Source: Bacteroidales bacterium
Lineage (GTDB): Bacteria > Bacteroidota > Bacteroidia > Bacteroidales > VadinHA17
NCBI GenBank assembly: GCA_049792755.1
Contig: JBARBF010000079.1
Coordinates: 5,218 to 69,217, forward strand
Length of the DNA: 64,000 bases
Reading direction: 5' to 3'
In this document: one piece after another, positions 56,928 through 62,559 of the stretch
Position numbering within the stretch: the stretch's first letter is position 1
How the letters are laid out: each line of letters starts with the position of its first letter
Translations under genes and position numbers: made by a program
The notes under the pieces: generated by a model
What the model was told of the DNA's origin: nothing
The model's input: the letters and a program-made list of their open reading frames with translations, nothing else
Database searches by the model: none

Positions 56928-57830
56928 ATGAATTTCTTTAATCATCATCTGGGTGAATTTGCCGCTCTGCTGACGGCGATATTCTGGACAATTACCTCAC
57001 TTTCATTTGAGTTTGCCAGTCACAAAATCGGTTCTGTTGCCGTGAATATTATAAGACTTATAATCGGATTTGCCTTCCTGAGCGTATTCAATCTTATAAG
57101 GAGAGGTTTGGTTTTACCGGTTGATGCCGGTATTGAGAACTGGATATGGTTATCGTTGTCGGGACTGGTTGGTTTTGTGTTCGGAGATTTATTCCTCTTT
57201 AAATCGTATACAATGATTGGCTCAAGATTTTCAATGCTGATCATGACTCTGGTCCCTCCTATTACTGCCTTTTTCAGCTTTGTTATTCTCGATGAACGGC
57301 TTACGTTGTTTCATTATCTTGGCATGACCCTGACATTTTCGGGAATTGCAATGGCAATTTTCAGCCGGCAGGCCAAAGGTGACAAATTATCTTTAAAACT
57401 AGCTCCAAGAGGAATATTGTATGCTTTCGGCGGCGCTATCGGACAGGCTCTTGGTCTTGTCCTGAGTAAATTTGGAATGAAAAACTACGACCCCTTTGCC
57501 GCGACGGAAATCAGGATTATTGCCGGGATATTTGGATATATAATCCTGGTAACTTTTCTTGCACGGTGGAAAACTATTGGAAAGGCTACTCACAATAAGT
57601 CGGGCATGATGTTAACCAGCCTTGGCGCATTTTTCGGACCTTTTCTGGGCGTATCATTCTCACTTATTGCTATTAAATATACCGAAGCTGGTATTGCATC
57701 AACAATTATGGCTCTTGTTCCGGTATTCATAATCCTTCCGGCAGTTATAATATATAAACAAAAAGTTACACTTCCCGAAATACTTGGCGCCCTGGTAAGT
57801 GTGGGAGGTGTTGCTCTGTTTTTTCTATAG
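56928..57830 (+). CDS. DMT-superfamily (EamA-like) transporter
   Basis: 300 aa with 10 hydrophobic helices arranged as two 5-TM halves. Confidence 0.8.
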   Translation: MNFFNHHLGEFAALLTAIFWTITSLSFEFASHKIGSVAVNIIRLIIGFAFLSVFNLIRRGLVLPVDAGIENWIWLSLSGLVGFVFGDLFLFKSYTMIGSRFSMLIMTLVPPITAFFSFVILDERLTLFHYLGMTLTFSGIAMAIFSRQAKGDKLSLKLAPRGILYAFGGAIGQALGLVLSKFGMKNYDPFAATEIRIIAGIFGYIILVTFLARWKTIGKATHNKSGMMLTSLGAFFGPFLGVSFSLIAIKYTEAGIASTIMALVPVFIILPAVIIYKQKVTLPEILGALVSVGGVALFFL

Positions 57831-57845
57831 CTAATATATAAAGTT

Positions 57846-58271
57846 ATGATTCAGGAAGAACTGAAATGCCGGAACCTTGATAAAGAATTTATCTTCTCAA
57901 GTTCAAGAAGCAGCGGACCCGGAGGTCAGAATGTAAACAAAGTAAGTACTAAAGTTGAGTTAAGGTTTAACCTGCTTCTGACAACCTCCTTCTCTGATAA
58001 TGAAAAAGAGCTTATTTTTAACAAGTTAAAGAATAAAATAAATTCAGATGGTGAAATAATACTTGTGTCGCAATCAGAAAGGAGCCAGTTAATGAATAAG
58101 TTGGCAGTAACCGAAAAGTTCTACGATCTTGTTTCAAAAGCTCTGACAATTCAAAAAAGACGCAGGCCTACAAGACCGACATTGTCATCAAAAATCAAGA
58201 GACTCGAAGGAAAGCGCATCAGAGGAATAATTAAAAAGACGCGAAAAGATTATGGGGAGTCACTTGAATAG
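57846..58271 (+). CDS. arfB: alternative ribosome-rescue factor / peptidyl-tRNA hydrolase ArfB
   Basis: 141 aa. The GGQ motif region SSGPGGQNVNKVSTKVELRF is present, with a basic C-terminal tail. Confidence 0.9.
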   Translation: MIQEELKCRNLDKEFIFSSSRSSGPGGQNVNKVSTKVELRFNLLLTTSFSDNEKELIFNKLKNKINSDGEIILVSQSERSQLMNKLAVTEKFYDLVSKALTIQKRRRPTRPTLSSKIKRLEGKRIRGIIKKTRKDYGESLE

Positions 58272-58861
58272 TATTCAGTAATGCCTTTTAATCTTGCCTC
58301 TAAACGAATTCACCGGCACCATTCCAAGGCCATAAGCAACAAAACCAATGGTTATAATCCTAAGTCCCTGTATTCCGGACTTAATAATGATATAATTATA
58401 AGTTTGGTTCAGGGTCAGAAGATAACGAACAAAACCATCTGGTTAATGTTTAAGTTTTTTAATTGCAGTAACGAGAATTAATTAAAAAAAAATTGTGGCA
58501 CGATTATTGAAAATCTCTGTATCAAAAATTTCAATGTTAAACAAAGAGGATTCAGAATGAATTAATTTTAAGATTTAAGTATGATTCGAAATTTTAATAT
58601 CAAAAAACTACCAAATTTATTTATATTCTGCTTTTATTGAGTAATCAACGTAATATGTTATTAATCAATATTATAAGATAGATAAAAACCTTACGGAAAA
58701 AATCGATTGTTAATAAAATGCCAATAGTGTTAATATTTCTGGTGGTCAAATGACACATTGTATTTATAGATTATATATTTTCGTGGCTAATTATTTTGAA
58801 TAAACAGTATTAATTTAAAACAATTAAACTAAAAAGAAAAGGTGAAAATTTTCATCATCTG

Positions 58862-59013
58862 CTATGAACGCTAACAATAATGAGGCTACGACGCTCCACG
58901 GAGAGAGTCGCCTCGTGGGTTGCTCTTCTGATGAAGAGCCTGGCGCGAAAACCACGATTTTTTCGCAAAACGAAATCCCAATTCCGTTAGTTAGCAACCG
59001 AAGTTCGGAGTTC
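58862..59013 (+). promoter_or_regulatory. candidate structured 5' leader of the KamA-like gene (alternatively a 50-codon N-terminal extension)
   Basis: A locally GC-richer block sits in a 740-bp AT-rich gap. Hairpins include GAGGC-TA-CGAC...GTCGCCTC. GCTCTTC-TGAT-GAAGAGC is nested in CGTGG...CCACG. CCGA-AGTT-TCGG lies just before the ATG at 59014. Confidence 0.3.
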
Positions 59014-60105
59014 ATGCACCGCTACTTCCCCCTAACGACTATCGATTCCTGGAATGATTGGAAATGGCAACTTCGGAATGCTTTCACCAGCATCGAAGAT
59101 CTAAAGAAAATCATGAAATTGTCCGAGAAGGAGATTATGGCTATTAACAATCTAAAAGGCCGTCTGCCGATAAGGATTACACCCTATTTTGCTTCATTGA
59201 TTTACGACAGCAAACCATCGCATCCTTTGCGCCGCAATGTTATACCTGTTGTAGAAGAACTGCTGGAAACAAGTAGTGAACAGTCTGATCCTCTGCATGA
59301 AAAATCATTTTCACCTGTTAAAGGAATCGTTCATAGGTACCCCGACAGGGTGTTATTTACAGTAACCCAGGTTTGTTCAAATTATTGCAGATATTGTACG
59401 CGATCACATTCGGTAGGGAGACTGGATAAACTTGGTAGACAGGATTTCGAAAAGGCATTTAATTATATTGCCGCTCATAAGGAGGTACGTGATGTGCTTA
59501 TAAGTGGTGGTGATCCGCTGACATTAAATGACGAGACACTCGATTACATCCTTTCCAATATCAGAAGTATTGAGCATGTTGAAATAATAAGAATAGGAAC
59601 CAGGATTCCTGTTGTACTGCCACAGCGAATTACCGATAATCTGATAACTATTCTTAGAAAATATCACCCGCTTTTCATCAGTCTGCATTTCTCGCACCCT
59701 GATGAGATAACGGATGAATGTGCAAAAGCCTGTATCAAACTGGCCGATGGGGGATTTCCTCTTGGAAGCCAGACAGTTCTTTTAAAAGGTATAAATGATA
59801 ATGTTCCTGTTATGAAGGAACTTATGCATAGATTACTAAAGATAAGGGTAAGGCCTTATTATCTTTATCAATGTGATTTAATACCAGGATCAGGGCATTT
59901 CAGAACTACTGTTAAAAAAGGTCTTGAAATAATAAAAGGACTCAGAGGCTTCACAAGTGGTTATGCCGTACCTACGTTTGTTGTTGATGCTCCCGGTGGC
60001 GGAGGAAAAATTCCATTGCTCCCAAACTATGTTGTTGAACACAATGATGAACGGATAGTATTGCGTAACTACAAAGGTGTGTTATGCGAATATCCTGAAA
60101 AATAG
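59014..60105 (+). CDS. KamA-family radical SAM/PLP aminomutase (lysine 2,3-aminomutase-like, short form)
   Basis: From the ATG at 59014 it aligns from residue 1 with the clostridial lysine 2,3-aminomutase (KamA), as I recall that sequence: WNDWKWQLRN, CSNYCRYCTRS, PYYLYQCDL..GHFRT and FVVDAPGGGGK. It ends about 50 aa earlier, so the C-terminal Cys-rich segment is missing. Confidence 0.85.
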   Translation: MHRYFPLTTIDSWNDWKWQLRNAFTSIEDLKKIMKLSEKEIMAINNLKGRLPIRITPYFASLIYDSKPSHPLRRNVIPVVEELLETSSEQSDPLHEKSFSPVKGIVHRYPDRVLFTVTQVCSNYCRYCTRSHSVGRLDKLGRQDFEKAFNYIAAHKEVRDVLISGGDPLTLNDETLDYILSNIRSIEHVEIIRIGTRIPVVLPQRITDNLITILRKYHPLFISLHFSHPDEITDECAKACIKLADGGFPLGSQTVLLKGINDNVPVMKELMHRLLKIRVRPYYLYQCDLIPGSGHFRTTVKKGLEIIKGLRGFTSGYAVPTFVVDAPGGGGKIPLLPNYVVEHNDERIVLRNYKGVLCEYPEK

Positions 60106-60114
60106 GGCTTTTAA

Positions 60115-61083
60115 ATGAAAGTTGGTTTAACGTTTGATCTGCGGTCATGGTATACTGATCGTGGATATTCCATGGATGAAACTGCCGAATTCGACAAGCA
60201 GGAAACTGTCGACGCACTTGAAAATTCATTGAAACAGATGGGATACGAAACAGAACCCATCGGAAATGCTTTTCAATTGATAGATGCTCTTGCTGCAGGA
60301 AAGAGATGGGATATTGTTTTTAACATTGCAGAAGGATTGTACGGCGACGGAAGAGAATCTGTGGTTCCTGCTATTCTTGATCAATACAAAGTCCCCTATG
60401 TATTCAGTGGACCAGTAATAATGGGATTATCACTTAACAAGCATCTGGCAAAACTCGTGGTTGCTTCTGCAGGAGTGCCGGTTAGTCCCGGTTACCTGAT
60501 AACTGAGTTCAAAGATCTCAGCAAATGCAATCTCAAATATCCTCTCTTTGTTAAACCGGTGTCTGAAGGTACGGGCAAGGGAATTACCGAGAAAAGTCAT
60601 GTTCACACCCTTATTGAACTTGAGAAAATGGTCGAATGGATTCTTAAGGAATTCCATCAACCTGCACTCGTTGAAGAATATCTGCCCGGAAGGGAATTTA
60701 CTGTCGGTGTTGTAGGATATGGTGAGGATGCAATTGCAATTGGAGGCATGGAAGTAATGACTAAAAACAACCTGCCGTATTCGGTCGAAGTAAAAGAGAA
60801 TTATCAGAATTATTGTAGTTACAAACCTCTTGACGCTGATATTATTGACGAATGCAAATCCGTTGCACTAGGCGCCTGGAAAGCATTGAATGCAGTCGAT
60901 GCCGGAAGAGTCGATCTGAAAGCCGACCGTAACGGTAAGATATGTTTTATAGAAGCGAATCCACTTGCCGGATTAAACCCCATTCATTCAGACCTGCCCA
61001 TTTTATCAAGAATGTATGGTATTGATTACCAGTCATTAATGGAGATGATAATGAAGGCTGCTCTTAAGAGGATCGAGGGGTAA
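60115..61083 (+). CDS. ATP-grasp ligase, D-Ala-D-Ala-ligase-like (1)
   Basis: 322 aa. Contains LNKHLAKLVVASAGVPVSPG, EEYLPGREFTVGVVG and GRVDLKADRNGKICFIEANPLAGL. Confidence 0.8.
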   Translation: MKVGLTFDLRSWYTDRGYSMDETAEFDKQETVDALENSLKQMGYETEPIGNAFQLIDALAAGKRWDIVFNIAEGLYGDGRESVVPAILDQYKVPYVFSGPVIMGLSLNKHLAKLVVASAGVPVSPGYLITEFKDLSKCNLKYPLFVKPVSEGTGKGITEKSHVHTLIELEKMVEWILKEFHQPALVEEYLPGREFTVGVVGYGEDAIAIGGMEVMTKNNLPYSVEVKENYQNYCSYKPLDADIIDECKSVALGAWKALNAVDAGRVDLKADRNGKICFIEANPLAGLNPIHSDLPILSRMYGIDYQSLMEMIMKAALKRIEG

Positions 61084-61122
61084 CAATCTTAAAGTTTATA
61101 TTAATGCAGAGTGTGGAAAAGT

Positions 61123-62088
61123 ATGAGGAGATGTTGTATTATCTATAACGAACCAGGTGAAGGCGCTTTAGCTGATGAACTTGATGTACTTGATCAGGTG
61201 GCTCATATTGAAAAACACCTGGCAGATCTTGGAATATCTGTATATAGAAAAGGCATCACGGAACAATTCATGTTTGAGATTGCAGAAATGGTTAAAGAGA
61301 AACCCGATTTTGTTTTTAACCTGGTTGAATCGATCAACAATAAAGGTGAACTGATTTATTTTGTTCCGGCTCTTCTGAATTTATATTCTATTCAATATTC
61401 TGGTAATTCACTTGAATCAATATTTCTTACAACAAATAAGACTATCTGCAGTAATATGATGAAAAAGGCAGGAATCAAAAACCCCGGGGCCTACCTGCCT
61501 TCAAAACCAAAACTTCTTAAACCTGGTAGAAAATATATCATTAAACCAATCTGGGAGGATGGTTCTCTGGGAATAACTTCTGAATCAGTATTTGAATGCA
61601 AACCAGGCTTTGAAACCAGATTAAAAGGACTCGATGATTCTCACTGGTTCATTGAAGATTATATCGATGGAAGGGAATTCAATATAAGTGTATTGGCTGG
61701 TAAAGACGGTCCTGAAGTGCTGCCTCCTGCCGAGATAATTTTTGTGGACTATGATGCAGGCAGACCAAGAATCATCGATTTTAAAGCTAAATGGGAGATG
61801 GATAGTTTTGAATATATAAATACGGTAAGGGAGTTTCCGGGAAGCAAAATCAGCAATCAACTGGCATCAAATCTAAAAGAAGCAGCTCTTTCATGCTGGC
61901 ATTTATTTGGATTAAAAGGTTATGCAAGAGTGGATGTCAGAACAGATAGTGATGATAATGTTTATGTGATTGAAATAAACGGGAATCCATGCATTTCACC
62001 TGATGGTGGTTTTGTTGCTGCTACAAGGGAAGCGGGATATCCTTTCACAGAAGTTTTGCAGAGAATAATTGATGATTTGAACTGGTAG
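61123..62088 (+). CDS. ATP-grasp ligase, D-Ala-D-Ala-ligase-like (2)
   Basis: About 321 aa from the ATG at 61123 (the track start is a GTG at 61111). Contains EDYIDGREFNISVLAG and ARVDVRTDSDDNVYVIEINGNPCISPD. Confidence 0.8.
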   Translation: MRRCCIIYNEPGEGALADELDVLDQVAHIEKHLADLGISVYRKGITEQFMFEIAEMVKEKPDFVFNLVESINNKGELIYFVPALLNLYSIQYSGNSLESIFLTTNKTICSNMMKKAGIKNPGAYLPSKPKLLKPGRKYIIKPIWEDGSLGITSESVFECKPGFETRLKGLDDSHWFIEDYIDGREFNISVLAGKDGPEVLPPAEIIFVDYDAGRPRIIDFKAKWEMDSFEYINTVREFPGSKISNQLASNLKEAALSCWHLFGLKGYARVDVRTDSDDNVYVIEINGNPCISPDGGFVAATREAGYPFTEVLQRIIDDLNW

Positions 62089-62112
62089 AGACGCCCAATT
62101 TGGGCGTCTCTA
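62086..62112. terminator. shared bidirectional terminator hairpin containing both stop codons
   Basis: Perfect 12-bp stem TAGAGACGCCCA / TGGGCGTCTCTA with loop ATT. TAG (62086-62088) ends the plus-strand gene, and CTA (62110-62112) is the minus-strand stop. Confidence 0.7.
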
Positions 62113-62559
62113 CTTAATAAGATTTGCATTATAATATTGAGGAATGCCGGTAACTTCCTCTCCCAGCCATGACGGTTTGTCGAAAAGCTCATCATCAGAA
62201 CCAAGCTCAATTTCCGCAATAATCAGGCCTTCATTCTTTTCATGAAAGACATCGACCTCGAATATGTGTTTTCCAGACTGTATAAGATATCGTGTTTTGA
62301 CAATTCTTCCAGGTATACATATACCCATCATTCCTTCGGCATCTGTCACAGGTATCTGAACTTCCCATTCGTTTCTGGTTATTGAGTTCTTATGAGGTCT
62401 CGATTTAACTGTAAGAAAAGCTTTATCATCAGCAATCCTTAGTCTGATGGTTTTTTCGGCATCTATCGTCAGGTATGATTGAAATATTTTTATCTCTTTG
62501 AATGCCAGGTGTCTGAATTCGCTTTTGACCAGAAATTTACGTTCTGTTTCCGTTGCCAT
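62110..62559 (-). CDS. CYTH domain protein (CyaB/thiamine-triphosphatase fold)
   Basis: From the ATG at 62559: MATETERKFLV (the ExExK signature), followed by ...IAEIEL... Confidence 0.8.
   Translation of the reverse strand: MATETERKFLVKSEFRHLAFKEIKIFQSYLTIDAEKTIRLRIADDKAFLTVKSRPHKNSITRNEWEVQIPVTDAEGMMGICIPGRIVKTRYLIQSGKHIFEVDVFHEKNEGLIIAEIELGSDDELFDKPSWLGEEVTGIPQYYNANLIK

Follow-up and report, generated by a model that had tools for sequence, protein, structure and literature searches.

What does a bacterium make with a lysine 2,3-aminomutase-like enzyme that is encoded immediately before two ATP-grasp ligases? The question is raised by a 64,000-nucleotide (nt) stretch of DNA (the window) from a Bacteroidales bacterium of the VadinHA17 lineage (assembly GCA_049792755.1, contig JBARBF010000079.1, positions 5,218-69,217 of the forward strand), part of a genome whose completeness is estimated at 100%. 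Three open reading frames (ORFs) lie there on one strand and encode a KamA-like aminomutase followed by two ligases, which we call AG1 and AG2. An earlier note, made from the sequence of the window, had proposed that the three genes form a pathway to a β-lysine peptide or conjugate. Our results support this interpretation in part, and a product of this kind is still something that we infer. Comparison with other genomes indicates that the trio is a reduced copy of a widespread four-gene unit, KamA-AG1-AG2-GNAT (the cassette), to which a GNAT-deacetylase gene and a gene for the membrane protein DMT_6 are optional additions; the GNAT and these two partners had escaped the earlier note.

Results

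Conservation of the cassette

The three genes are tightly packed. The aminomutase ORF closes with TAG at 60103-60105, 9 nt before AG1, and AG1 is separated from AG2 by 27 nt or 39 nt, depending on whether AG2 starts at GTG 61111 or at ATG 61123, the latter being preferred by homologue alignments; AG2 ends at 62088. The ORF coordinates agree with the co-directional arrangement and the gaps (9 and about 27-39 nt) given in the earlier note.

An AG2 homologue was found in 64 of 301 Bacteroidota species genomes surveyed. Neighbourhoods were inspected in 20 Bacteroidota regions, where AG1 and AG2 usually stood in tandem, followed by a gene for a 157-amino-acid (aa) GNAT and by the aminomutase gene, with recG and dnaG often flanking the group. 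A pattern scan of 185,579 species genomes gave at least 594 matches that encode relatives (594 of the 600 listed), and the relatives of AG2 fall into 906 clusters (representatives at 50% identity, E ≤ 1e-30). Cassette composition was counted in the best 80 loci, several of which are interrupted by contig ends. KamA was present in 65 of them and GNAT in 49, with the order KamA-AG1-AG2-GNAT and in at least six phyla (Bacteroidota, Desulfobacterota, Spirochaetota, Planctomycetota, Lentisphaerota, Fusobacteriota and others). Carriers include Bacteroidales, Cytophagales, the cultured Prolixibacter denitrificans DSM 27267, Draconibacterium, Lentimicrobium and Ignavibacteriales; Desulfobacterales, Desulfovibrionaceae and Syntrophales; and Spirochaetota, Pirellulales, Lentisphaeria, Ilyobacter and Riflemargulisbacteria. 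The triad that the earlier note had suggested looking for in other genomes, KamA with two ATP-grasp ligases, is thus strongly conserved across phyla, and the window trio, with its adjacent KamA, AG1-type and AG2-type genes, is orthologous to it.

Gene fusions were also found. Among the top 150 AG2 matches, about 12 are AG1-AG2 fusions (~640-730 aa) and about 14 are AG2-GNAT fusions (~490-540 aa). A GNAT-histone-deacetylase-family gene (~580 aa) lies within the cassette in 13 of the 80 loci (for example, L075:4256-6001), either in the interval between KamA and AG1 or in that between AG2 and GNAT, and in one locus (L116, 8556-10298) deacetylase and cassette GNAT form a single fused protein. The ligases are, therefore, tightly coupled with a small GNAT, both by genomic position and by fusion. 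Full-text literature searches, which do not fully exclude an earlier description, found no account of the cassette or its product; the cassette is an undescribed system built from known kinds of enzyme, and at least one cultured carrier makes it accessible to experiment.

We also noted a locus of a different make-up. One Bacteroidota genome (G016) encodes a double ATP-grasp fusion (L057:5815-7785), a protein of 656 aa with matches to AG1 as well as AG2. A DMT_6 gene (L057:8052-8378) comes directly after it, and the 15-kb stretch contains no KamA. In loci without KamA in the flanks no alternative precursor enzyme was found, the neighbours being unrelated housekeeping or respiratory genes.

Family and probable substrate of the aminomutase

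The aminomutase matches the Pfam families LAM_C and Radical_SAM. Of the models compared, it scored highest with that of the lysine enzyme AblA (TIGR03820; 498.6 bits, under the cut-off of 525.4). It gave 446.2 bits with the glutamate model Eam (TIGR04368; cut-off 650), 400.6 bits with the arginine aminomutase model and 255.8 bits with the EpmB model (TIGR03821; cut-off 369.3), and it passed the cut-off of the KamA subfamily model TIGR00238 (370.8 against 199.2 bits). The protein falls below the cut-offs of both EpmB and the glutamate aminomutases, the two memberships that the earlier note had seen as speaking against its proposal. It is encoded by the only KamA-family gene in the genome.

In lysine 2,3-aminomutase, Lys337 binds pyridoxal 5'-phosphate (PLP) and Arg134 binds the carboxylate of the substrate, while Asp293 and Asp330, both replaced in glutamate 2,3-aminomutase, bind the ε-ammonium group of lysine. 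Alignment of the window protein with the enzyme of C. subterminale (PDB 2A5H; 453.6 bits, residues 14-367) places the cysteines of CSNYCRYC on Cys125/129/132, and shows that CTRS keeps Arg134, that QCDL carries Asp293 and that VVDAPGGGGK carries Asp330 and Lys337. In the numbering of the full 413-aa protein, Arg134 corresponds to R180, Asp293 to D338, Asp330 to D375 and Lys337 to K382. The cysteine triad and these four residues are invariant across 29 cassette aminomutases from several phyla. The motifs listed in the earlier note are confirmed, and its preference for lysine as the substrate agrees with both the model scores and the two retained aspartates. Judged by these residues and scores, the cassette aminomutase appears to be a lysine-type enzyme. 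The protein ends at about residue 368 of the 416 in 2A5H and has Asn at the position of Cys268; the zinc site and the C-terminal oligomerisation module (Cys268, Cys375/377/380 of the clostridial enzyme) are, therefore, absent, as the earlier note had said of the Cys-rich zinc segment.

Two divergent Ddl-like ligases

Both ligases resemble D-alanine-D-alanine ligase (Ddl), though distantly: the best scores with Ddl models were 132.3 bits for AG1 and 97.1 bits for AG2, against a cut-off of 243. A true Ddl is encoded on a separate contig (C110; PF07478, 177 bits). Cyanophycin synthetase was rejected as an identity of AG1 and AG2 (NF010623; 38.1 bits against 877), which are single ATP-grasp units of 322 aa. 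The ligases are thus neither genuine Ddl nor cyanophycin-type enzymes, two identities that, according to the earlier note, would have given them unrelated roles.

The residues of DdlB that handle ATP/Mg and the acyl-phosphate (Lys144, Lys215, Arg255, Asp257, Glu270 and Asn272) have equivalents in both AG1 and AG2. Across 33 AG2 homologues, Lys141, Lys223, Arg269, Asp271 and Asn286 are invariant, and Glu284 is nearly so. His63 of DdlB is replaced by an invariant Glu in both ligases (Glu69 in AG2) and Tyr216 by Glu in this AG1 and by Trp (Trp224) in AG2, and the GGxSxE loop of Ddl, which contains Glu15, could not be recognised in either. Conserved acidic motifs are present near the N terminus, A-E-F-D in AG1 and D-E-x-D in AG2. 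The loss of residues of the D-Ala pocket together with the gain of acidic ones would fit cationic diamino substrates.

The AlphaFold model of AG2 has a predicted local distance difference test (pLDDT) score of 94, and its best fold matches in the PDB are all Ddl (template modelling (TM) score ~0.77, ~20% identity). The AG2 sequences group as a separate clade in a maximum-likelihood tree (support 100/99). The trees of AG1 and AG2 divide identically into two cassette types, which shows that the duplication is old and that both copies have been retained. AG1 and AG2 are thus ancient, non-redundant paralogues other than D-Ala-D-Ala ligases, with intact catalytic residues and altered substrate pockets.

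Known β-lysine pathways

The earlier note had found none of the known KamA contexts in the window, and for EpmA, AblB and Kce the absence extends to the whole genome. Genome-wide, the genX model of EpmA gave no match above its cut-off, the matches being aminoacyl-tRNA synthetase-sized proteins. The AblB model TIGR03827 had no match in the genome, and the cassette GNAT reached 15.9 bits with the AblB model, for which the cut-off is 205.1. Kce/BKACE (PF05853) was likewise without a match in the genome, where kamDE and kdd were not searched for. The single elongation factor P (EF-P) of the genome (C34:83924-84475) has the loop K-P-G-K-G-P-A, that is, it belongs to the PGKGP subfamily, members of which, those of Bacteroidetes included, are reported or hypothesised to function unmodified (bioRxiv 10.1101/2023.09.18.558224). 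No efp gene lies within 100 cassette loci. Given the lack of EpmA, the lack of efp in these loci and the PGKGP type of the EF-P, we rejected EF-P modification as the role of the locus.

Start and tail of the aminomutase

The earlier note had the aminomutase begin at 59014, which our comparison with 14 close relatives does not bear out. The 150 nt before this position contain no indels and no stops in the alignment, and their variable columns number 15/22/31 of 50 per phase, a third-codon-position bias. In contrast, the DNA upstream of 58864 is ~85% variable and has many indels. Because the 150 nt vary as coding sequence does and the DNA beyond 58864 does not, we place the start at ATG 58864, which adds 50 codons and gives a protein of 413 aa, the length at which database homologues are mostly called. 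A non-coding, hairpin-dense leader upstream of 59014, which we had considered, was rejected since the relatives vary there as coding DNA does. As to a riboswitch or other RNA leader, there was no Rfam match in 58200-59200.

The added segment forms a tail whose residues 1-39 are disordered in the AlphaFold model (pLDDT ~30), in which the core is ordered (mean pLDDT of the whole model, 78.4). Among the 14 close relatives, the tail motif S-S-D-E-E-P-G-A (58924-58947) shows synonymous changes only. Of the tails of 62 distant cassette aminomutases, 30 contain [DE]-P-P-[SG], as a rule after further acidic residues; in 1000 shuffles the mean was 0.7 and the maximum 5. The tail thus holds a conserved acidic short linear motif, E-E-P-(P)-G/S. 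In the aminomutases of cassettes with the order AG1-AG2-GNAT-KamA, the tail is wholly absent.

Acetyltransferase, membrane protein and palindrome in this genome

A cassette-type GNAT adjoining the ligases is absent from the window. The orthologue of the cassette GNAT (160 aa; identity with cassette GNATs, 36-53%) lies on another contig (C9:31886-32368, minus strand), 37 nt downstream of the gene for a 969-aa protein that has a C-terminal M28 peptidase domain (the pair spans C9:31886-35314). This domain is the only recognisable part of the protein, for which there is no sequence relative in the PDB. Two close relatives share the M28-GNAT pair and 12 other cassette genomes lack it; the 969-aa protein, present in 2 of 14 cassette genomes, both of them close relatives, was accordingly rejected as a general partner of the cassette. 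By analogy with the GNAT-histone deacetylase (HDAC) genes of other cassettes, the pair may be a hydrolase-acetyltransferase module. No HDAC-type deacetylase was found in this genome, the only tblastn match being to the GNAT part of a fusion.

In nine related Bacteroidales loci the cassette is directly followed by the gene for DMT_6 (DUF486), a membrane protein of 122 aa, of which only remnants are left in two close relatives (gene and remnants at L058:3162-3530, L061:8001-8201 and L059:8056-8127). We could not find DMT_6 anywhere in this genome. The series looks like the stepwise decay of an accessory transporter. After AG2 the window has, instead, a perfect palindrome of 29 nt with 14-bp arms (GTAGAGACGCCCAA-T-TTGGGCGTCTCTAC), which contains the stop codons of AG2 and of a convergent CYTH gene. 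The element belongs to a dispersed repeat, GAGACGCCCAA-N-TTGGGCGTCTC, which resembles repetitive extragenic palindromic (REP) elements and is present in the genome in 20 near-identical copies, some of them clustered (C163, C54, C15). The relatives have the DMT_6 gene or its remnants at this site and no palindrome. Since the palindrome occupies exactly the DMT_6 site of the relatives, it marks the junction of the gene loss. The earlier note had seen a strong terminator here. Termination, possibly in both directions, is still compatible with the element, but its nature as a copy of a dispersed repeat and its lack of a T-run do not fit that description.

Surroundings of the cassette

A small hairpin lies 8 nt before the corrected aminomutase start and is preceded by an A-rich run (Table 1). 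In the RNAalifold analysis it has five pairs, two of which (columns 22-38 and 25-35) show compensatory GC/AU changes. It stands at the end of an AT-rich region of ~590 nt between arfB and the aminomutase start (58272-58863), which is rich in indels and poorly conserved among close relatives; no convincing ORF and no Rfam match were found in it. Further upstream (56928-58271), on the same strand as the cassette, are a gene for an EamA-family transporter of the drug/metabolite transporter (DMT) group and arfB; the position of the EamA gene is kept in seven related loci and that of arfB in six. A scan for promoters and terminators gave a number of sites not above that in shuffled sequence.

Table 1. 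Features of the aminomutase-ligase locus (positions in the window)
Feature	Position	Strand	Basis or remark
Hairpin GGTG...CATC	58841..58856	+	Possible translational/5'-untranslated region element; RNAalifold on 14 relatives
Putative KamA-family radical-SAM/PLP lysine 2,3-aminomutase, 413 aa	58864..60105	+	Family scores, 2A5H alignment
Aminomutase N-terminal extension, 50 aa	58864..59013	+	Coding-type variation; residues 1-39 predicted disordered
AG1, predicted Ddl-derived ATP-grasp amide ligase, 322 aa	60115..61083	+	PF07478, 84.3 bits
AG2, predicted Ddl-derived ATP-grasp amide ligase, more divergent, 321 aa from ATG 61123	61123..62088 (alternative GTG 61111)	+	PF07478, 67.2 bits
Perfect palindrome, 29 nt, copy of dispersed genomic repeat	62085..62113	.	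Sequence read, genome copies

Discussion

How might these enzymes work together? The conserved residues of the aminomutase suggest that it would convert L-lysine to β-lysine by radical-SAM/PLP chemistry. AG1 and then AG2 would each form one amide bond via an acyl-phosphate, joining β-lysine to more β-lysine, to a common amino acid or to a polyamine; we propose this step because the ATP-grasp catalytic residues are intact, the paralogy is ancient and non-redundant, and the genes occur as fusions. The small GNAT, in this genome encoded on another contig, would acetylate a free amine of the product, as the AG2-GNAT fusions and the GNAT-deacetylase partners suggest, and a hydrolase (the deacetylase or peptidase partner) would either remove the acetyl group or degrade and recycle the product. 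Many genomes carry the cassette as a self-contained set, and the remaining building blocks are therefore probably common metabolites or β-lysine itself. We thus favour, with a probability of roughly 0.55, a product that is a free, small, cytoplasmic β-lysine peptide or amide open to N-acetylation, either an N-acetylated solute resembling a di- or tripeptide or a short oligo-β-lysine polycation. Such a product would serve as a stress solute or, with acetylation determining its charge, as a polyamine-like compound.

Several points weigh against this proposal. Carriers live in fens, lakes, groundwater and digesters, none of them saline, and the role of a classic osmolyte is, therefore, not obvious. 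With its GNAT unlinked and DMT_6 lost, the window copy may differ in its working or be partly decayed. A simple soluble pathway leaves the conserved acidic tail of the aminomutase unexplained, and the order of the reactions is read solely from gene order and fusions.

Alternatively, the product could be a β-lysine compound that is exported and is bioactive or placed at the cell surface, for example a streptothricin-like oligo-β-lysine polycation, with the GNAT and deacetylase providing self-protection or a pro-drug switch and DMT_6 acting as the exporter. Streptothricin resistance consists of N-acetylation of the β-amino group of β-lysine, which would suit the acetylation and deacetylation partners that exist here; one cassette GNAT weakly matches the streptothricin acetyltransferase model (E = 0.00088), and DMT_6 directly follows both the cassette in the nine Bacteroidales loci and the double fusion of L057. 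DMT_6 is, however, facultative, being lost here and decaying in close relatives, and other Bacteroidota classes carry the cassette between recG and dnaG without a transporter. The mirrored trees of the two ligases, moreover, are more readily explained by a physiological function that has long been inherited vertically than by a mobile cluster for an antibiotic. We regard an exported product as unlikely.

Two further explanations concern the ligases themselves. We find it quite improbable that they modify a protein, attaching β-lysine either to a Glu of the aminomutase's own E-E-P-P-S/G tail, thereby making the tail a carrier in the manner of LysW, or to a different protein such as EF-P. There are precedents, since the ATP-grasp enzymes LysX and RimK modify protein glutamates or C termini and β-lysine is the modifier of EF-P in E. 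coli, and the tail is disordered, has an acidic-proline motif far in excess of chance (30 of 62 against 0.7 expected) and tolerates only synonymous changes in that motif in this lineage. Nevertheless, aminomutases without the tail exist in AG1-AG2-GNAT-KamA cassettes, so that the tail is not an obligatory carrier; the 100 cassette loci lack efp, the EF-P of this genome has the PGKGP loop, and the Ddl branch is known only with small-molecule substrates. That there is no dedicated pathway at all, with β-lysine going into N-ε-acetyl-β-lysine or into catabolism and the ligases being spare D-Ala-D-Ala or D-Ala-D-X enzymes, we consider highly improbable. Ddl models are indeed the first match for both ligases and Ddl structures the best fold matches of AG2, but the scores are 97-132 bits against cut-offs of at least 243, the pocket has retained neither the Glu15 loop nor His63 nor Tyr216, and a true Ddl is encoded elsewhere in the genome. 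Synteny and fusions with KamA and GNAT, furthermore, span phyla, and AblB and Kce are absent from this genome.

Within the small-molecule pathway that we favour, the acidic motif of the tail might still be a working part, either as a docking handle for a channelling complex of the aminomutase, AG1 and AG2, or as a covalent anchor for β-lysine in the manner of LysW, although we give this idea little credence. If it is true, the anchor version, in which β-lysine would be placed on a Glu side chain, elongated and released, would represent a novel type of carrier, borne by an enzyme, for the synthesis of small molecules.

Hundreds of species from many phyla, mostly uncultured anaerobes, retain this compact set of genes for a putative β-lysine compound. 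In routine annotation the ligases appear as 'D-alanine--D-alanine ligase' and the aminomutase under a generic name, a systematic error that the identity of the product would correct. It would also add a new β-amino-acid metabolite, be it a solute, a polycation or a secreted compound, to the physiology of anaerobes, and would extend the Ddl branch of the ATP-grasp family by two new substrate specificities. The window offers a natural experiment in this respect, with the three core genes kept together, the acetyltransferase moved beside a peptidase and the membrane protein lost.

Among the closest known systems is the AblA/AblB pathway, which makes N-ε-acetyl-β-lysine in methanogens and green sulfur bacteria, with kamA-yodP as the version in Bacillus (see also PMC11201294). 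As there, a lysine 2,3-aminomutase would give β-lysine and a GNAT would acetylate an amine, and AblA is the best-scoring model of the cassette enzyme. Unlike AblA/AblB, the cassette adds two ATP-grasp ligases, its GNAT is a protein of 157-160 aa distinct from AblB, and its aminomutase lacks the C-terminal module and has the acidic N-terminal tail. AG1 and AG2 share the three-domain ATP-grasp fold and equivalents of the catalytic residues with DdlB (PDB 2DLN/1IOW) and the Van ligases, from which they differ in being only ~20% identical, in their changed pocket residues and in having no cell-wall genes around them.

The coupling or fusion of a GNAT to an ATP-grasp ligase, seen in the AG2-GNAT fusions, has a counterpart in the synthesis of N-acetylglutaminylglutamine amide (NAGGN), an N-acetylated dipeptide solute of Sinorhizobium and Pseudomonas, where Ngg is a bifunctional GNAT and ATP-grasp enzyme. 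NAGGN synthesis, however, uses another ATP-grasp lineage and an amidotransferase partner, and involves neither an aminomutase nor a β-amino acid. EpmB and EpmA differ from the cassette in that ligation there is by a lysyl-tRNA synthetase-like enzyme and not by ATP-grasp ligases, and this genome has no EpmA and an EF-P of the PGKGP type; in EpmB, as apparently here, a KamA-family enzyme that has no zinc module at its C terminus supplies β-lysine for ligation to an amine. The LysW/LysX system, finally, is distinguished by a separate zinc-ribbon protein, LysW, with a C-terminal EDWGE motif, and by a ligase, LysX, of the RimK branch, whereas the motif of the cassette lies within a disordered N-terminal tail and is missing in half of the cassette types. 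What the two would have in common is an ATP-grasp ligase acting with an acidic peptide motif to which an amine substrate might be bound.

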